A stretch of DNA of 64,000 nt, from IMG/VR virus record IMGVR_UViG_2648501839_000008; one strand, 5' to 3'. The notes under the pieces are model-generated. The model saw nothing but the letters and a program-made list of their open reading frames with translations, was not told the origin of the DNA and made no database searches. Positions within the stretch are counted from its first letter, which is position 1. The number at the start of each line of letters is the position of its first letter. The stretch is from a virus. Its lineage: Duplodnaviria; Heunggongvirae; Uroviricota; Caudoviricetes. The position numbers and the translations under genes are program-made. Positions 6,044 through 59,399 of this stretch are shown piece after piece.

Positions 6044-7174
6044 TCACACCGCCACTGGAACCTTGATCCACGGTAGAGGGTCATAGCCAAGAATCAGAAT
6101 ATCGTCCCATTTGAAATCATCCAGCTCAGACCATTCATGAGGGAAAATAACGACCGGATCTGAATGCTCTGGAGCCTGTCGTTTCATTAGCTCACACACA
6201 CCTTCCATGTGGTTGTTGTACAAATGCACGTCAAAGCCAAAATGTACAAATGCACCGGCCATGTGACCCGTAATCTTCGCGAGAAAATGAGTGAGAATGC
6301 CATAGCCAGCAATATTGAATGGCATACCAACAAAAGTGTCTACGCTACGCTGTACGAGGCAGGAGTTGAGGATGCGTTTGGGGATTCCAAGTTCATCCAG
6401 TTCAGTTTCAGTAACACTGCCGTCCATCTCCAGATCGTATAGCATCTTGGTGTAGATAGACTCATAACCGAGGCGACTGTGTTGAAGACCAATGTCAGTT
6501 GCCATCGTTAAACGGGTTTCAAAATCAAGCTCACGACTCCACAAAGAGAAGACAAAGTGGCAAGGTGGCAGTTTCATATCCTCAAGCTCGCCTACGTTCC
6601 ATGCGTTAAGCATGATACGACGATCGGTGGGGTTCGTGCGCAGTGTATCGACAATACGCTGTAGCTGATCGATTTCACGGGACAGCACTACGCGATCTTC
6701 ACTGATACCCAGGTATCCCTCGACTTTGTACCCGCGTTCACGGAAAGTATCGATCTTGCTCAGATATTCACTATGGCTCACGATGCGGGTATCTTCCCAT
6801 CGACGCCACTGCTTACCGTAAACCGGCCCCAAATCGCCATTCTCATCGGCCCATGCATCCCAAATCTTAACGCCGTTATCCTTGAGAAATTGGATGTTGC
6901 CCGTGCCTTTCAGATACCACTCAAGTTCGACAAGCAGTGGCTTAAGATTTACCGCCTTTCCAGAAATAAGCGGCACAGTCCCACCAGTAAGCATGTAGTA
7001 AGAGGGAACGTAGCAGGTGCTTAAAGTACCAGTGCCTGTGCGATCATCAGCCTGCACGCCGCTTTTAAGCACCGTCTCAATAACTTTTGCATACGATGCG
7101 TTTGTTACCTGACCGTTCGTATGCTCACGATTCAAAAGGAGTGACACAAAAACCTCACAAAGATAAGTAATCAC
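6044..7174 (-). CDS. thyA: Thymidylate synthase with two internal insertions
   Basis: DRTGTGT, WNV.ELEDM.LPPCH (catalytic Cys) and DVHLYNNH motifs. The 7174 start is GTG with no RBS; an alternative GTG at 7147 has GAGGT upstream. Confidence 0.9.
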   Translation of the reverse strand: MITYLCEVFVSLLLNREHTNGQVTNASYAKVIETVLKSGVQADDRTGTGTLSTCYVPSYYMLTGGTVPLISGKAVNLKPLLVELEWYLKGTGNIQFLKDNGVKIWDAWADENGDLGPVYGKQWRRWEDTRIVSHSEYLSKIDTFRERGYKVEGYLGISEDRVVLSREIDQLQRIVDTLRTNPTDRRIMLNAWNVGELEDMKLPPCHFVFSLWSRELDFETRLTMATDIGLQHSRLGYESIYTKMLYDLEMDGSVTETELDELGIPKRILNSCLVQRSVDTFVGMPFNIAGYGILTHFLAKITGHMAGAFVHFGFDVHLYNNHMEGVCELMKRQAPEHSDPVVIFPHEWSELDDFKWDDILILGYDPLPWIKVPVAV

Positions 7175-7318
7175 TTATTCATTAAGTGAGTTTACATTTA
7201 TTGAGGGAACAAGGCCAGATAGATAAAAAAATGGTGGCCATAGGCCACCAAAAACGAATAGTTGTTTCAGAAATTTAACGCGCCAACGCAATATACACAG
7301 ATAGATAACTACCTACAA

Positions 7319-8265: not shown

Positions 8266-9408
8266 TTACAGGTCAGCAAACTGGCTTAGAGAAGCCTTAT
8301 CCACGGTAGAATCGATCTGACCTACCAGATATGTGCTTTGCTCTGCCTCTTGTGGTGCAATTTGCAGTGTGTCGGTTAACAACCACTTGTTCATCCAGAC
8401 CAGCGGATCGGTGGTAACCTCTGGAAATAAAGCCTTCAGGCCAAGACGATTCATAGCCAGATTGGTGCGGTATTTTACATAGGTTTTGAGAATATCCGCG
8501 TTTAAACCAATCATCGAACCGTCTTTGAAGAGATAGTCTGCCCAGTTCATTTCTTGTTCGGCGACTGATTTCATGGTGTCGTAAATGACGTTTTCTTCAT
8601 CAGCAGCAATCTCTTTCCACAATAAACCTTCGCGACCGGTACGCATGAAGCGGAGCATGCGTTCAGTTCCTTCGCAATGCAGAGCTTCATCACGGGCAAT
8701 AAAGCGCATAATTTTGGTGTTACCCTCAAGCAACTTCCGTTCGCCAAAGGCAAACGTACATGCAAAACTTACATAGAAACGGATCGCCTCAAGCGCATTA
8801 ATGGACACCAACGTGCGGAAAAGCTGACGGTGCAAAGGGTATGGCTCCCAGCCATATTCATTTACGTACAGACGTTCAAACTCCTTCTGACCTAACGACT
8901 GGCGCTCGCAGGTCATCCCATAAAGCCTGTCATATTCAGCAGAGATACTGATCGCTCGGTTGATGATTTCTTCATCCGTAACAATACCGTCAAAAACAAT
9001 GCTCGGATCGTCCACCATGCCACGAATAATGTGGGTGTAGCTGCGGCTATGGATAGTCTCAGAGAAAGACCATGTTTCAACCCACGTTTCCAGTTCAGGA
9101 ATAGAGATAAGCGGCAGCAACGTTGCATTTGGGCTACGTCCCTGAACTGAATCGAGTAACGTTTGATAACGGAGATTGCTCAGAAAAATGTGACGTTCGT
9201 GGTCCCGCAGCTTCGTGTTGAAGTCGATACGATCGCTCGAAATATCAACTTCTTCCGGCCGCCAGAAGAAAGACAATTGACGTTCAATCAACTTTTCAAA
9301 ATCACGGTATTTTTGCTGATCGTAACGTGCCACGTTGACAGATTGTCCGAGGAACATAGGCTCTTTGGTTGCATCATTAGCACCCAAACGGAACGTTGAA
9401 TATGACAT
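8266..9408 (-). CDS. nrdB: Ribonucleotide reductase class Ia small subunit
   Basis: Near-colinear with E. coli NrdB from MSYSTF onward ([44 protein letters not shown]). Start ATG 9408 is preceded by AAGGAAAAACAC; the ORF-track start at 9444 is rejected. Confidence 0.95.
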
Positions 9409-9513
9409 GTGTTTTTCCTTTTGCTTTTTGATGTGTTTAAACAAGTTGTTATCTTATTTGTTTAAACAAGGCTTACAAATCAAAGAGAAGGTGGGGATAT
9501 ACCCCACCATATG

Positions 9514-11868: not shown

Positions 11869-11902
11869 ATGTTAATAGATAAGCACTTACCTATCAATGA
11901 AA

Positions 11903-20434: not shown

Positions 20435-20860
20435 TCAATCATCTTGTTTAGGGAAAAACTGTTCAATAACTCTGTCAACGGCTGTGTCTATATGGAGTAG
20501 ATGCCACACAACCATATCTTTGCTCCCCATGCCTTGTGTGAATATCACGTCATACTTACGCCATGCGCAGTGGAACCAATATGCTGAGTCATCAATTGGT
20601 AAATCCTCTCCCGCCTCTTTGAAGTATTTCAGCAGCATTGCTTGCTCTGCCGTTGGCGTTGGACCTATTTCCTGAGCGTACATACGGATAAATCGCTGCC
20701 AGTCTGTCTCGTCGGTGGTCGGATCTGGTGGATTCATTTCGGCGATAGCGTTTCGTAGCTGATGCGCCCAATCAGGTTCAGGAAAGCCTTTTGATACTTC
20801 ATCATCAATAACATCCAGAGCCGCGTTTGCGGCATCGTAGAGTTTCTTAATAGCTGTCAT
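20435..20860 (-). CDS. Hypothetical protein
   Basis: 141-aa ORF; leader contains the AAACAATTTGTTT palindromic box. Confidence 0.55.
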   Translation of the reverse strand: MTAIKKLYDAANAALDVIDDEVSKGFPEPDWAHQLRNAIAEMNPPDPTTDETDWQRFIRMYAQEIGPTPTAEQAMLLKYFKEAGEDLPIDDSAYWFHCAWRKYDVIFTQGMGSKDMVVWHLLHIDTAVDRVIEQFFPKQDD

Positions 20861-20916
20861 ATTTTCTTAACCCTTTAAACAAATTGTTTTCTTAATAAGA
20901 TAATTGCGATAAAAAA

Positions 20917-21986: not shown

Positions 21987-22053
21987 GTGTTTTCCTATGT
22001 GGTTGTTATGCGAAAATAATAAGTAAGTACTTATATATTTTCAAGAGATAAAA

Positions 22054-26146: not shown

Positions 26147-27130
26147 ATGGATAAGGCTAACAAACAAGTCAAAGCAACAAAGTCAGTGCCGACTAAAAAA
26201 ACAGCCCTCCCCCCAAAAGCTAAGTCTGTAAAGCCAGCGGCAGAAAAGAATAAAACTGAAGGTATGACATATCCGAAAACCAGTGCGGATGGACACGCTG
26301 GAGAGTACTTGTTTGCCTATTGGATTTCTCGTTATTTCAGATGGCCTTGTCGATTGCTAGATATTGATATGGGATTGGATGCTCAGGTTGAAATATATGA
26401 AAATAATCTTTCGACAGGTTTTTTTATCGGCGTTCAGATAAAAACCACCTCACGCAAAATGAAGAGAAGGTTAAGCGTACAAATACCTTATAAAAATATA
26501 ACCTATTGGGGAAGTTGTGATTTTCCTGTGGTAATTGTTTTGATATGCCTACACGATGATAATGAATTAGACGAACCTGCTATTTATTGGAAGCATTTAG
26601 ATAAAAAAACAATTTCTAAAATAAAGGATAAAGCATTAAGAAGTGACTCTGGATGTGCTCCTGTAACTTTCAATAAGGATGATTATCTGTCTGAATGGGC
26701 AGACAAACAAAAGTGGGTCGACATGTGGCTTACAGAAGAAGATAAAGAGATAATTGAGCTTGCAAAGCGAGTAAACAAGACGTTGCTAGAGATAGGTGTT
26801 CCTCTTGATAAATTCGGAGACGAGTATGACCGCAGCACCTACCTGTGTAGCCCTGAGCGGGTAGTACCAGACTTGAACTCTATGATGAATGAATATGAAA
26901 AAATAAATAACCATATACGTGTAAAGCGTCGATTAGTAGAATTCGATCCTGTAGTGTCGATTTGTTCACAAAATTATGAAAAGTATCTACCTAAAATCCT
27001 TGAATATTTTGAAGATGTGGTCGCACGTAGTGTCGGTTCATACTCGATTGCAGAACATTTCGAACCATACAGTGATCGTAATCATATTCTGAATCGAATA
27101 ATTATAGAGAAAGCCCCTAATTCAAGATAG
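26147..27130 (+). CDS. DUF4365-like (Mrr-like PD-(D/E)xK fold) protein with uncharacterised C-terminal domain
   Basis: Plus-strand, AT-rich gene in a minus-strand backbone. GHAGEYLFAYWISRY..DIDMGLDAQVEI..GVQIKT matches the DUF4365 signature as recalled. First ATG is 26147; the track start 26132 is TTG. Confidence 0.6.
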   Translation: MDKANKQVKATKSVPTKKTALPPKAKSVKPAAEKNKTEGMTYPKTSADGHAGEYLFAYWISRYFRWPCRLLDIDMGLDAQVEIYENNLSTGFFIGVQIKTTSRKMKRRLSVQIPYKNITYWGSCDFPVVIVLICLHDDNELDEPAIYWKHLDKKTISKIKDKALRSDSGCAPVTFNKDDYLSEWADKQKWVDMWLTEEDKEIIELAKRVNKTLLEIGVPLDKFGDEYDRSTYLCSPERVVPDLNSMMNEYEKINNHIRVKRRLVEFDPVVSICSQNYEKYLPKILEYFEDVVARSVGSYSIAEHFEPYSDRNHILNRIIIEKAPNSR

Positions 27131-31002: not shown

Positions 31003-32238
31003 TTAACCAAATATTTTTTGAACAACTTCACGTGCCGCTTGCGCAGAAGCTGAAGGGAGTTTGTTAATGAAAGAACGCTCAATACCTGTCACAAAGTCGC
31101 CTCGCATCATTCCAATCTTGGCCGACAACAAAAGTTCACGAGGGCCAATCGGCTGACTGATCAGGTGTTCTTCGTATCCATCGCGAACGATACCGGCAAA
31201 CTTAACCATCTTTTCAGCGTATTCATCCACGATGCCAGCATTTATCAACATGCTGATCTCTGCCTCTTTGCTCATGTATTTCACATTCGAAACGATGCCA
31301 AAACGCGAAAAGTTAGCGGCGTTCTGGATGTTTGTACCCTGGTACAAGCCGGTTTCATCACCAGATCCGTTCGTGTTGCCAGTGCCAATGAAAGCAAACC
31401 GTTCATGCGGAGTAATGCGACGCCATTCTGGAGTCGCCTCTTTGATGACCAACGCTTCACCTTCCAGCACTGGCTGATACACGCCAAGAATCTGTGGAAA
31501 CGCAAAGTCGTATTCATCCGCGAGGTAAACCCAGCCATGCTTCATTGCGAGCGCAAGCAAGCCAGGCTCGAAATACGTAGAGCCATCACGCGCCAGAATT
31601 TGTCCCGTAACATGAGCCTCTTCCATTGATGCTGTATGTTGGGCACGGATTAACGGACGATTGAGCAAAGCACATAGTTGTGTAGGCAATGAAGATTTGC
31701 CTGTTCCTGCATGACCCCACAAATAGCCTGGTATGCCAAGTTCAAGCATCATGAAAATGTCTTTGATCAGTTCGAAGTCGCCATATACGTATCCCTTCTT
31801 CACTTCTGGAACGAACTCTGGAAACGGCGTATTGACGTTGACGCTAACCATGAGCGGCGTCCCACGTTTTGTTCCGAGTTCTTTCACCGTTACATTTAGC
31901 AGTTCGTGAGCTGCGACCAGATCTGTCTTGTACTCAACTGTGCCTGTATAGCCTGGGCTATTGGTCACGCCAGATGATTTGGCCATTTCGCTTTTTTGCT
32001 CGGCACGTTTAGCTTGAATTGCATCAAGTGCCTTTTTCGATAGCGTTGGCTCATCTGGAAACTGCGTTGTGTACATTTTCAGTACGGTGTCAGGATCGGC
32101 ATCTTTTACTGACTCAGGAATGCCCTCGCAATTACCATTGGCTACATGGGACTTAAAATAGTGAAATGATTTTCCGCACCACTTGCAAACAAGGTAATCA
32201 GAAGGATTTTTTTCATTTTGCAGTGCAGTAGTAGTCAT
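31003..32238 (-). CDS. AAA+ ATPase, MoxR/CbbQ-like (phage CobS-like)
   Basis: Walker A LWGHAGTGKSS with an N-terminal Cys cluster; paired with a downstream vWA protein. Confidence 0.8.
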   Translation of the reverse strand: MTTTALQNEKNPSDYLVCKWCGKSFHYFKSHVANGNCEGIPESVKDADPDTVLKMYTTQFPDEPTLSKKALDAIQAKRAEQKSEMAKSSGVTNSPGYTGTVEYKTDLVAAHELLNVTVKELGTKRGTPLMVSVNVNTPFPEFVPEVKKGYVYGDFELIKDIFMMLELGIPGYLWGHAGTGKSSLPTQLCALLNRPLIRAQHTASMEEAHVTGQILARDGSTYFEPGLLALAMKHGWVYLADEYDFAFPQILGVYQPVLEGEALVIKEATPEWRRITPHERFAFIGTGNTNGSGDETGLYQGTNIQNAANFSRFGIVSNVKYMSKEAEISMLINAGIVDEYAEKMVKFAGIVRDGYEEHLISQPIGPRELLLSAKIGMMRGDFVTGIERSFINKLPSASAQAAREVVQKIFG

Positions 32239-34442: not shown

Positions 34443-34540
34443 GGCTAATCCTTTGTTATGAAAACAAATTATTTACTAGTGTGTTTAATGTAGCACTGCG
34501 CGAACAGGGAACTAAGCCATTCGCGCAGGTAGAAGAGGGA

Positions 34541-34753
34541 TTAACAGGTTCTGACGGCTAAAGACCCGGAGCCGGTATTGATAAGCGTGAAGCGTTTGTT
34601 GTTAAGTTCGAATATAAAGCCAGTTGTGTCATTCACACCAACCTCAATCTGCTCATTCGGTAGCTCGGTGAGGATGTCAGCTACACACTCATCAGCTAAT
34701 TTTTGTACGTGTCCGATCTCAAGAGCTATTAGGCTGGAAATAGTGGTGTTCAT
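34541..34753 (-). CDS. Hypothetical protein
   Basis: 70-aa ORF. Confidence 0.45.
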   Translation of the reverse strand: MNTTISSLIALEIGHVQKLADECVADILTELPNEQIEVGVNDTTGFIFELNNKRFTLINTGSGSLAVRTC

Positions 34754-35004
34754 TCAATCAATCCATTCTTACTTATACTATTGTAAGGAATACTACTAAA
34801 ATTTATATCAATACTGAATACATCCATATTAGATGCAAGTTAATTTTCTTACCTATTTGGGGCTAGTTTTTCACCATGCATTGGTCTTCGTCCGGTCTTT
34901 AAAGTGCCTGCCGAAAAAAATGATAATAGCTTTACAACCCTAACCTTTGATGTAATATCGGTAAGCACTTACCAGAGAGAATTGAACGCGCAAAGGTTGT
35001 AACA

Positions 35005-36489: not shown

Positions 36490-36699
36490 ATGACAATCAC
36501 CGAGTTACGCCGATGCACTGTATAAGTAAACAGTATATTAGGCATAGATTCTTATAGGATCAAGAGTAAAAGTAACTCATTTTCAGTAATGATTCCATAC
36601 ATAGTAGGTATGGAATCATTTAGACGTTGTTTTTTGAATTTTAAGGGAAACAGGAGTGAGTTTGGTGGGAATAAAAACGGCTCCTGTGAGCCGTTTAAA

Positions 36700-38981: not shown

Positions 38982-39057
38982 TGGTGCCGGTTAACGGACT
39001 TGAACCGCTGGCCATTCGCTTACAAAACGACTGCTCTACCAACTGAGCTAAACCGGC
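38982..39057 (-). tRNA. tRNA-Thr (anticodon UGU), tentative
   Basis: Reverse complement GCCGGTTTAGCTCAGTTGGTAGAGC...GGTTCAAGTCC...AACCGGCACCA; anticodon loop UUUGUAA, with one mismatch in the anticodon stem. Confidence 0.55.
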
Positions 39058-39061
39058 AATT

Positions 39062-39148
39062 TGGTGGGGAGTGATGGAGTCGAACCACCCGAGTCGCCAT
39101 GACAGTAGATTTACAGTCTACACCGCTACCTCTACGGACTAACTCCCC
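39062..39148 (-). tRNA. tRNA-Tyr (anticodon GUA), type II
   Basis: Reverse complement GGGGAGT...GTAGACTGTAAATCTAC...GGTTCGACTCC...ACTCCCCACCA. Confidence 0.6.
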
Positions 39149-39153
39149 TAAAT

Positions 39154-39228
39154 TGGCGATGGTGGGTGGATTCGAACCACCGACCAGTTGGTTAACAGCC
39201 AACTGCTCTACCGCTGAGCTACACCATC
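39154..39228 (-). tRNA. tRNA-Asn (anticodon GUU)
   Basis: Reverse complement GATGGTGTAGCTCAGCGGTAGAGC..GTTGGCTGTTAACCAAC..GGTTCGAATCC..CACCATCGCCA. Confidence 0.65.
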
Positions 39229-48238: not shown

Positions 48239-49942
48239 TTAATTATTAAGCAATCTGCTCACACGTAGTTTGTTAAGACTTGATCTAGAGGCCAGTTTCG
48301 TTAATGCACCTATTGCTTTATTCGTGATTTTTTGCTGTTCTTCTGTTAGTTCTTGCATACTTTTGAATCTGAGCAACCCCTTTCTCACTAAATCCAAAGC
48401 ATCCTGATTGCGGGATAGTATCCACTTTAAATAATCATCTTCAGAGAAACTGTTAAGATATGCTATGTCACTATGATTAAATTTGCCTTCAATTATTTTG
48501 TATAAAACATTCTCTAAATTAGTCTCTTCAGGCTTCTTATCCATCAATTTTTTTTGAATTAGCAGACCTAACTTTTCGTTACCAAATATCTCTACATACA
48601 AATTCCGAAAAGCAGTATAAGCATCATCTTGGCTAACAAAGGCATCTGCATATGCCTCTATATAACTATCACAATCAATCTCCAATCTATTTAAGATATC
48701 AATCAAGCCTATGAAGTGAGCAACAGGTATGTGTGAAAGATTGTCGTTAATTACACATTTTATCTTAGAAATAAACTCAGATTCATTGTCCTTGAATGAG
48801 TCACTAAAAATATCCCAAACATTGTTAACATCACATAAAGCCTTGTGTTCTTTATATTGTTTATTTTTTTCTTCTATTATACCTCGAATATTGCTTTCAG
48901 TAGAAAGATAACCATTCTTGAGATAAAAATCTATGTCATCATCGAAAGCAATTTCCGCTCGTTCATAAATAACATCAAGACTATTAATAAATGAATATAC
49001 AGAATCATCCTTTTTATCATCTAACATGTAATCAAATACATGTATGTTTTTAATTGATTCTTTAAACAAGGCATAATCAACACCTGGAACACCAGAATAG
49101 TAAACCACTGAAAACAGAACCAATCTATTGATAAAACTTTCTCTAACCTTATCCTCTGCCAAGCTTAGCTCATTCCTAAGATTAACCAGAGATGTTTTTA
49201 TTTTATTTAATATACGGATATTTTTAATGCCTAAGTCATTTGCTAAGACTTTTAACAAAAGAAAATCAGAATCAGTTTCATAAAAAACTTTACGTAAGTT
49301 CTTCTCAGGCGTAGGATCGTATTTTATTTCGACATCAATTACTTTTTCTCTGTACTCTAAAAACTGTTTTTTTGCAGTTTCATCATGTAAATTATCTTCA
49401 TTTAAAATTAGAACAACTTTGCAACCTTTTCTTCTTGCTAATTCATCAATTACCCCCATAATTTCTTTAACTTCTAGCGAATTACCTTTTCTTTCAACAT
49501 CATCAATACAAACCAAATAATTATTAACAAATTTATACTCAAGAGATGACAGCAGGTTATCTGTTTTGAACCCAAAAAAATCGTTCTTTCCGAAATGTAT
49601 TAAAAATTTTGACAAGGAGTTGTATTTCAACCATCCCCAAAACCCATTTCTATAACGAATCATAGTTCGATCCGTTTCAGATAAAATTAGTTCTTTATAT
49701 TTCTTTTCATTAATTGGTGTGGCACAATGATAAAGAGCTTTTTTAATATCACCAATAGAGTTAACCCCAAACAAAGAAACATACGAATATGCATTAAAAT
49801 CTAATCCTTCAGAATGCTTAGTATAAAAACTATTCCAATAATGAGTTTTACCAACGCCCCAATCTCCTTTTATGACGGCAACCCGATGATCTGAAACTAG
49901 AAAATTTTTTAGAAATGATTCTATCGATTCCATTAGTATCAA
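48239..49942 (-). CDS. KAP-family P-loop NTPase
   Basis: N-terminal Walker A in VAVIKGDWGVGKTHYW, Walker B VCIDD; 567 aa with markedly lower GC than flanking genes. Confidence 0.75.
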   Translation of the reverse strand: MILMESIESFLKNFLVSDHRVAVIKGDWGVGKTHYWNSFYTKHSEGLDFNAYSYVSLFGVNSIGDIKKALYHCATPINEKKYKELILSETDRTMIRYRNGFWGWLKYNSLSKFLIHFGKNDFFGFKTDNLLSSLEYKFVNNYLVCIDDVERKGNSLEVKEIMGVIDELARRKGCKVVLILNEDNLHDETAKKQFLEYREKVIDVEIKYDPTPEKNLRKVFYETDSDFLLLKVLANDLGIKNIRILNKIKTSLVNLRNELSLAEDKVRESFINRLVLFSVVYYSGVPGVDYALFKESIKNIHVFDYMLDDKKDDSVYSFINSLDVIYERAEIAFDDDIDFYLKNGYLSTESNIRGIIEEKNKQYKEHKALCDVNNVWDIFSDSFKDNESEFISKIKCVINDNLSHIPVAHFIGLIDILNRLEIDCDSYIEAYADAFVSQDDAYTAFRNLYVEIFGNEKLGLLIQKKLMDKKPEETNLENVLYKIIEGKFNHSDIAYLNSFSEDDYLKWILSRNQDALDLVRKGLLRFKSMQELTEEQQKITNKAIGALTKLASRSSLNKLRVSRLLNN

Positions 49943-51012: not shown

Positions 51013-51188
51013 TAGAGAGTTCCCTTTGCGTATATAATTATCGTCTGAAACAACTTGTTTTCTTATATGTGATATAGCCTAAATGCCTACGGCTGCGGTG
51101 TAAAGGTTAAATGGTAGGTGCTGCCTTAGAATTTTTAGGCGAGAATCAATGGCTGTTAACAAAAAAGGCGACCGAAGTCGCCTAATTG

Positions 51189-59306: not shown

Positions 59307-59399
59307 GTTGAATATGCTCCTTGATTTGGTGGGCTATCCTTGCCCACCATTAAGTAAGTACATACTTATTTTTACCGATATAAATATTTTTTTCTACCA

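Follow-up and report, generated by a model that had tools for sequence, protein, structure and literature searches.

It is well established that the C1 repressor of P1, a plasmid prophage, acts at one short operator scattered over many lytic promoters, including those for replication. These operators are 17 bp long and asymmetric (ATTGCTCTAATAAATTT), and C1 is monomeric. In mycobacteriophage L5 about 30 copies of the gp71 stoperator, an asymmetric 13-bp site for one repressor, lie in short intergenic spaces, are oriented with transcription and act on elongation. The KorA/KorB regulon of the IncP plasmid RK2, with palindromic operators (OA = GTTTAGCTAAAC) at many backbone promoters, coordinates replication, partition and transfer; KorB is a ParB-family clamp. 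Type Ib partition systems, for example omega of pSM19035 and ParG of TP228, have a small ParA, a small partner with a basic tail and an operator in the parA promoter. The targets of omega and ParG are arrays of 7-bp or 4-bp repeats at a few promoters, and the sites of omega are the same at several promoters, where they are both operators and centromeres. In Salmonella the target of FljA is in the fliC leader just before the Shine-Dalgarno sequence. FljA-like repressors act on this leader post-transcriptionally (PMC2652032).

Clinical E. coli, Klebsiella, Enterobacter and Salmonella very commonly contain SSU5-like phage-plasmids, which also carry resistance genes. The core genes of these elements have matches in about 650–1,000 records of the plasmid collection. 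Lysis-lysogeny control of these elements is essentially unstudied, and a literature search on SSU5 regulation and on the motif sequence found no description of the motif examined here. One 17-bp site at nearly all lytic units is a handle for finding the master regulator, and it lets the early regulon be defined and promoters be annotated in hundreds of elements.

The DNA analysed is a 64,000-nt stretch, called the window, with most genes on the minus strand. Over the nrdAB region it shares 98.5% identity with Escherichia phage Cyrano (the pLF82 phage-plasmid of E. coli LF82). Its identity to Salmonella phage SSU5 and Klebsiella phage-plasmids is about 77%, and a plasmid collection search matched 646 plasmid records to the window. 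Judged by these identities and matches, the window is a SSU5-like phage-plasmid in the reverse complement orientation of the Cyrano record. Three tRNA genes (38985–39228, minus strand) are annotated in Cyrano as Asn, Thr and Ser. An AT-rich insertion at 48239–49942 (32% GC) with a 567-aa P-loop (KAP-like) ORF directly adjoins the par operon and takes the place of the gene that Cyrano has there.

Distribution and conservation of the dyad

The original prediction placed an AAACAA-N-TTGTTT dyad upstream of nrdB, the helicase gene, parA and gene 20435–20860. The dyad was found at 4/4 of these loci with the sequence described, and a fifth site, before the cobT-like gene, had been overlooked (Table 1). 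The dyad is enriched in the 64-kb window. With ≤1 mismatch, AAACAANTTGTTT has 5 matches versus 0.51 expected, a number reached by 0 shuffles, and TTGTTTAAACAA has 4 matches versus 0.32 expected. All of the sites (5/5) are in intergenic spacers before the ATGs of minus-strand genes, at measured distances of 13–32 nt rather than the 20–40 nt first proposed. Aligned on the coding strand, they give a longer, asymmetric consensus of 17–19 nt, AGAAAACAA-N-TTGTTTAAA. A 21-nt weight matrix made from the relatives picks out the same five sites as outliers at 24–33 bits; the rest of the window scores ≤13 bits, within the null range.

Table 1. Sites, genes and other palindromes, in window coordinates unless another genome is named.
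Feature	Position	Strand	Remarks
Dyad site 1, AGATAACAACTTGTTTAAA	9436..9454	-	27 nt before nrdB ATG; 27.7 bits; kept in SSU5 and Klebsiella
Extra right-arm copy, TTGTTTAAACAA	9458..9469		upstream at nrdB
Dyad site 2, AGAAAACAATTTGTTTAAA	20874..20892	-	13 nt before ATG of 20435–20860; directly after terminator hairpin; 32.7 bits; orthologues SSU5 56846, Klebsiella 71384, pMT1 50065
Dyad site 3, AGTAAATAATTTGTTTTCA on minus strand	34459..34477		16 nt before cobT-like ATG; 23.8 bits on +, 15.8 on -, higher on + strand; orthologues SSU5 42727, pMT1 89257, perfect or 1 mismatch
Dyad site 4, AGAAAACAATTTGTTTAAA	47289..47307	-	17 nt before DnaB-like helicase ATG; 30.4 bits; kept in SSU5 and Klebsiella
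Dyad site 5, AGAAAACAAGTTGTTTCAG	51045..51063	-	32 nt before parA ATG; 29.9 bits; candidate par operator
Outliers of the weight matrix	9435–9455, 20873–20893, 34458–34478, 47288–47308, 51044–51064		21-nt matrix
nrdB	8266..9408	-	downstream of site 1
141-aa hypothetical gene, CYRAN_58 homologue	20435..20860	-	first gene of operon with Cra-like gene at end; downstream of site 2
cobT-like gene, 702 aa	32334..34442	-	downstream of site 3
DnaB-like replicative helicase	45931..47271	-	downstream of site 4
Small ParA ATPase, 222 aa	50344..51012	-	downstream of site 5; Pfam CbiA/ParA/MipZ on Klebsiella orthologue
ParG-like ParA partner, 119 aa	49985..50344	-	next to parA
FljA-family gene	Cyrano OV696614 100780–101301; SSU5 96897–97343; pMT1 34465–34992		outside window; annotated only 'transcriptional regulator'
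terS leader	Cyrano 55–134; SSU5 53–133; Klebsiella phage 26494–26550		outside window
GGTAAG-NN-CTTACC	2326–2339, 11878–11891, 34960–34973		second dispersed palindrome
ATAAGTA-NN-TACTTAT	7163–7178, 22019–22034, 39982–39995, 59355–59368		third palindrome

Two copies had been reported at 9433–9470, before nrdB. The sequence is there, but the family-type dyad is site 1. The two TTGTTTAAACAA copies are the right arm of that dyad and an extra right-arm copy upstream, which is 25 bp, start to start, from the downstream GTGTTTAAACAA copy at 9433–9444. The extra copy is kept in SSU5. In Klebsiella it is degenerate, and a second full dyad lies 25 bp off instead. An NrdR box at nrdB was rejected by inspection, the sequence being unrelated to the NrdR consensus. 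The ATG of gene 20435–20860 (window 20858–20860) is ATA in Cyrano, and the Cyrano annotation therefore starts the homologue further downstream.

The full family motif, GAAAACAANTTGTTTAA, is far commoner outside the window, which holds a minority of its sites. Genomes were counted at ≤3 mismatches to this motif, for which chance gives about 2 sites per genome. In Cyrano there are 19 sites, 16/19 in annotated intergenic spacers, besides a second site before terS. The first 100 kb of SSU5 contain 20, and about 16 were counted in a Klebsiella relative. Yersinia pestis pMT1 has 6, and 20 kb of a more distant Enterobacter kobei-type element contain 2. The motif recurs at some 15–20 promoters per SSU5-like genome. 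The Cyrano units served are the small early genes CYRAN_101–111, CYRAN_85, 87 and 93, the CYRAN_58-led operon, cobT, helicase, nrdB, parA and the terS leader. A regulon limited to replication, nucleotide metabolism and partition, as first suggested, is too narrow, as the small early genes dominate and the terS leader is also included.

Elements from E. coli, Salmonella, Klebsiella and Yersinia were used to align the regions upstream of parA, helicase, cobT and nrdB, each alignment taking in those for which the locus could be obtained. At about 76% genome identity, no block except the ribosome-binding site is as well conserved as the dyad, and the flanks diverge. The site of the Klebsiella parA orthologue (GAAAACATCTTGTTTTC) stands amid otherwise unalignable sequence. 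Absence from the homologous leaders of relatives had been named as grounds against the prediction; sites are present in those leaders. Co-regulation by one factor is supported by a single asymmetric 17-bp motif with a 13-bp perfect dyad core, conserved at four leaders, and by its recurrence across the 15–20 promoters of each genome. The family motif is absent from a distant Acinetobacter relative with the same gene order, which has a dispersed palindrome of its own, AGTCAG-N2-CTGACT. A pattern scan of the viral collection returned SSU5-like contigs mixed with chance matches.

One dyad copy (Cyrano 94603–94619, SSU5 90738, Klebsiella phage 39532) is followed by a conserved non-coding stretch (...taacgcaacgggagcg.ttctgagc...) that sits within an ORF annotated as hypothetical. 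This stretch could be a small RNA or an origin-associated element.

Other palindromes are also dispersed in these elements. GGTAAG-NN-CTTACC has 6 matches in the window at ≤2 mismatches versus 1.3 expected, and lies upstream of the Dam-methylase and nrdA genes and in the control region that separates the HTH repressor from its divergent neighbour. In SSU5 there are 7 copies, some of them before the portal and holin genes. The 'first leader box' of the original prediction may be this palindrome. ATAAGTA-NN-TACTTAT is the second most frequent perfect palindrome with 6-nt arms in the window and Cyrano, after the dyad studied here.

Site anatomy, promoter context and lysogen expression

In 34 aligned sites from two genomes, A2–A7 and T9–T14 are near-invariant (88–100% each) and both arms are equally conserved. 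The centre base shows no preference. It is uniform (14/14/13/11), and among 52 distinct site variants there were 42 one-sided arm changes and 0 compensatory double changes. The dyad hairpin is worth −0.7 kcal/mol, five leaders fold no better than shuffles (z −1.1 to +0.75) with pairings that differ in each, and no Rfam family matches. The weak hairpin, the non-significant z scores and the lack of compensatory changes give no support to a 'leader box' in the sense of an RNA element. Because the arms are equal, the centre is free, covariation is lacking and no stable RNA hairpin forms, the dyad reads as a protein-recognised DNA site. Two-fold symmetric conservation around a free centre is the mark of a dimeric DNA-binding protein. 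The flanking bases G0, A1 and A15–A16 are conserved yet non-symmetric, so a purely symmetric DNA binder does not account for them; they may reflect the start site or strand-specific reading.

A T found 12 nt upstream of the motif in 31/34 sites closes a −10 hexamer. This hexamer (GATAAT or TATTAT) ends exactly 12–13 nt before the motif in 20 canonical cassettes; in the early-gene cassettes the dyad follows the extended −10 at a fixed 11–12 nt. Of the 20 cassettes, 15/20 carry the extended −10 'TGn' (TGnGATAAT), which chance would give in 1 in 16. By sequence the canonical cassettes are extended −10 promoters for host RNA polymerase, and for this reason they should fire without an activator. 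Transcription is predicted to start about 4–5 nt before the motif, and the dyad would then cover about +7 to +19. The Shine-Dalgarno sequence follows the dyad at a variable spacing of 0–25 nt. Several promoters have a reversed copy 51 bp upstream (about −38), often the T-tract of the preceding terminator, and at others (terS, nrdB) a second copy lies at a distance of 25 bp. Several promoters are bracketed by paired dyads with a spacing of 25 or 51 bp.

The five window sites are less canonical, with −10-like elements at variable distance, and we infer their relation to the start site. A sigma-70 consensus scan that covered the cobT, helicase and parA sites called no promoter immediately upstream of these three, so the dyad there could lie within a longer leader.

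In RNA-seq of the LF82 lysogen the first genes after dyads have values of 5.7–25.5, where the prophage median is 9.8 (PMC9928086, supplementary table). The values are 7.1 for terS, 21 for helicase, 7.8 for cobT, 5.7 for CYRAN_58 and 12.9 for nrdB, and 5.7–25.5 for CYRAN_101, 105, 106, 108, 110 and 111 (PMC9928086). In the same lysogen parA is at 50, about 5x background, and the ParA partner at 89; Cyrano is induced by ciprofloxacin (PMC9928086). Dyad-linked genes are at background in the lysogen except parA. Promoters that are expected to be constitutive yet are silent in the plasmid state favour repression, although the absence of an activator would equally give silence in the lysogen.

Our preferred reading, to which we give a probability of about 0.6, is that the dyad is the operator of one element-encoded regulator that silences lytic genes in the plasmid state. 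The 17-bp operator, GAAAACAA-N-TTGTTTAA, would lie at or just after the start of about 15–20 host-RNA-polymerase promoters in each of the SSU5-like phage-plasmids. Its binder would be an element-encoded regulator, symmetric and probably dimeric, that stops RNA polymerase either from binding or from escaping the promoter. While the element is a plasmid in the lysogen, the early genes, helicase, nrdB, cobT and the terS leader would be kept silent, while at the weaker parA copy the same protein would merely throttle the partition operon. We infer both DNA binding at the dyad and repression by that binding.

Candidate regulators and alternative readings

The first candidate for the dyad binder is the ParA partner, which would, in the manner of omega of pSM19035 or ParG, act as both partition protein and transcriptional repressor. 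We make this assignment tentatively. The operon of the ParA partner carries the dyad and is the sole dyad-bearing unit expressed in the lysogen. A putative DNA-reading segment (KSRTMS) and the GRPTRGK tail are invariant between variants of the protein that are 48% identical overall. Two members of the family have sub-threshold RHH_1 matches at residues 49–85 (E = 0.005 and 0.11), and the AlphaFold model, of low confidence (pLDDT 62), has a helix pattern that fits RHH. The protein of the window has no Pfam, PDB or Foldseek match and no significant sequence link to RHH families, and an exhaustive HMM search found only 18 clusters. An RHH fold is weakly indicated. Weighing against this candidate, the ParA partner gene is lost from Yersinia pMT1, which retains six dyads, although pMT1 is a young and degenerate derivative.

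The suggestion that the parA copy is an autoregulatory operator is plausible, as it is the only conserved symmetric element there and the parA operon is expressed in the lysogen. There is a single dyad and no other repeat array near parA. It is possible, if doubtful, that the ParA partner, besides its part in partition, is the master silencer of the lytic programme, and that the dyads, roughly 20 in number, are operators and centromere-like sites at once. Such silencing, if true, would couple plasmid segregation to the lysis-lysogeny decision.

A homologue of CYRAN_117 (C117), outside the window, is a second small RHH-like candidate, with a lysogen expression of 114. The HTH repressor C45 (35005–35388, beside the integrase) is lysogen-expressed and is unlikely to be the binder, because its own control region carries a different palindrome: 34754–35004 has no family dyad and has GGTAAGTGCTTACC instead. 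In PHROGs the candidate binder families are of 'unknown function', except the HTH protein, which is assigned to transcription regulation. Homologues of the FljA-like, ParA-partner, CYRAN_117 and C45 proteins all travel with the element, so co-occurrence cannot separate the candidates.

About 995 plasmid records, Yersinia and a 110-kb Acinetobacter group among them, carry the module of integrase and HTH repressor. The module is absent from phage SSU5, which may explain the description of SSU5 as virulent. A LexA (SOS) consensus box, CTGTATAAGTAAACAG, lies at window 36518–36533 directly upstream of the integrase gene. Perfect SOS boxes are also found at SSU5 88011 and Klebsiella phage 43777, where they overlie the promoter of a small gene, possibly for an antirepressor under SOS control.

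The dyad might instead be read as RNA. A FljA-family protein would bind the 5' leader before the ribosome-binding site, block translation and destabilise the mRNA, as FljA does on fliC. A full-length PF03614 (FljA) protein (E = 1e-80), with about 40% identity to true FljA, is encoded by each SSU5-like element examined. Its AlphaFold model (pTM 0.79) consists of two Sm domains in tandem, and every top PDB match is an Hfq. The motif is sense-oriented between the inferred transcription start and the Shine-Dalgarno sequence and is A-rich then U-rich, and its asymmetric conserved flanks agree with strand-specific reading. However, reverse-complement symmetry, a free centre and the lack of covariation are features of a DNA dyad and not of single-stranded RNA. 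Spacing is fixed to the −10 element and variable to the Shine-Dalgarno sequence (0–25 nt), reversed copies lie upstream of promoters, and in the window the cobT copy is reversed with respect to its gene, while the orthologous copies of SSU5 and pMT1 are near-perfect. The fliC leader has no significant match to the motif: it ranks 58 of 16,000 by the matrix, and 12% of shuffles reach its gapped alignment. Only the 8-mer CAAGTTGT, which is non-significant, is common to the motif and the Salmonella and E. coli fliC leaders. Moreover, the FljA-like gene is expressed at about 2x background in the lysogen, where the target mRNAs are already absent. An RNA operator is thus unlikely; if the FljA-family protein does the silencing, it would be a phage-encoded, Hfq-like global repressor at the RNA level. 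The distant Acinetobacter relative has a 179-aa 'Hfq' gene beside the helicase (31399–31938).

Positive control, which we hold to be very unlikely, would have an activator or antiterminator encoded by the element recognise the dyad or load there and modify RNA polymerase soon after initiation, so that the polymerase reads through the numerous terminators between genes. In the leader of terS (late operon), one or two dyads precede a GC-rich terminator hairpin with a T-tract, which is followed by the ribosome-binding site; this build suggests antitermination control of the late genes. The order of dyad(s), terminator hairpin and terS is found in all genomes and is as in lambda pR'-tR'. Terminators separate many of the units, and activator-dependent units would likewise be expected to be silent in the lysogen. 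Against this, most canonical cassettes have extended −10 promoters, for which activation should not be needed, and most dyad units are without a terminator between dyad and gene. The parA unit, furthermore, is expressed in the lysogen, where lytic regulators are off.

Binding by a host protein (IHF, another nucleoid protein or a transcription factor) is highly improbable: the core AAACAANNNNTTT resembles the IHF consensus WATCAANNNNTTR and an identical motif occurs across elements of E. coli, Salmonella, Klebsiella and Yersinia, but, whichever way it is oriented, the consensus deviates from that of IHF at two specified positions, and T9, T10 and G11, positions left free by IHF, are conserved at 88–100%. 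An explanation of the sites by IHF, which the original prediction had named as grounds against itself, is not supported; two positions of WATCAANNNNTTR mismatch and conservation is dyad-specific. We know of no enterobacterial factor with this dyad consensus. The different palindrome of the Acinetobacter relative agrees with element-encoded specificity, although a different host would explain it equally.

Comparison with known systems

An operator for one element-encoded regulator, as preferred here, invites comparison with FljA and fliC, the KorA/KorB regulon, type Ib partition, L5 and P1. The element encodes a protein homologous to FljA, but the fliC leader lacks a significant match and the dyad behaves as a DNA site. 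KorA/KorB operators are likewise palindromic and spread over many promoters, but proteins and sequence are unrelated to those here, and the ParB-like genes of this element are silent in the lysogen (PMC9928086).

The par genes of the window resemble type Ib systems in that a 222-aa ParA without an N-terminal DNA-binding domain is followed by a 119-aa partner, but no array of repeated sites is present at or near the par promoter. Instead of repeat arrays at few promoters, single 17-bp dyads are found at about 20. The L5 stoperators are similar in copy number, in their intergenic position and in their orientation, but the present site is a dyad whose position is tied to the promoter.

P1 shares with this element a plasmid prophage state and a short site at many lytic promoters. 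As for C1, there are many enriched promoter copies, and the genes downstream are silent in the lysogen. The site here, in contrast, is a dyad of unrelated sequence, and no C1 homologue was seen in the element. Since its sequence is unrelated to the operators of these systems, the dyad would not be claimed for any particular one of their families, and the finding is most likely a new example of a global operator in a temperate element.
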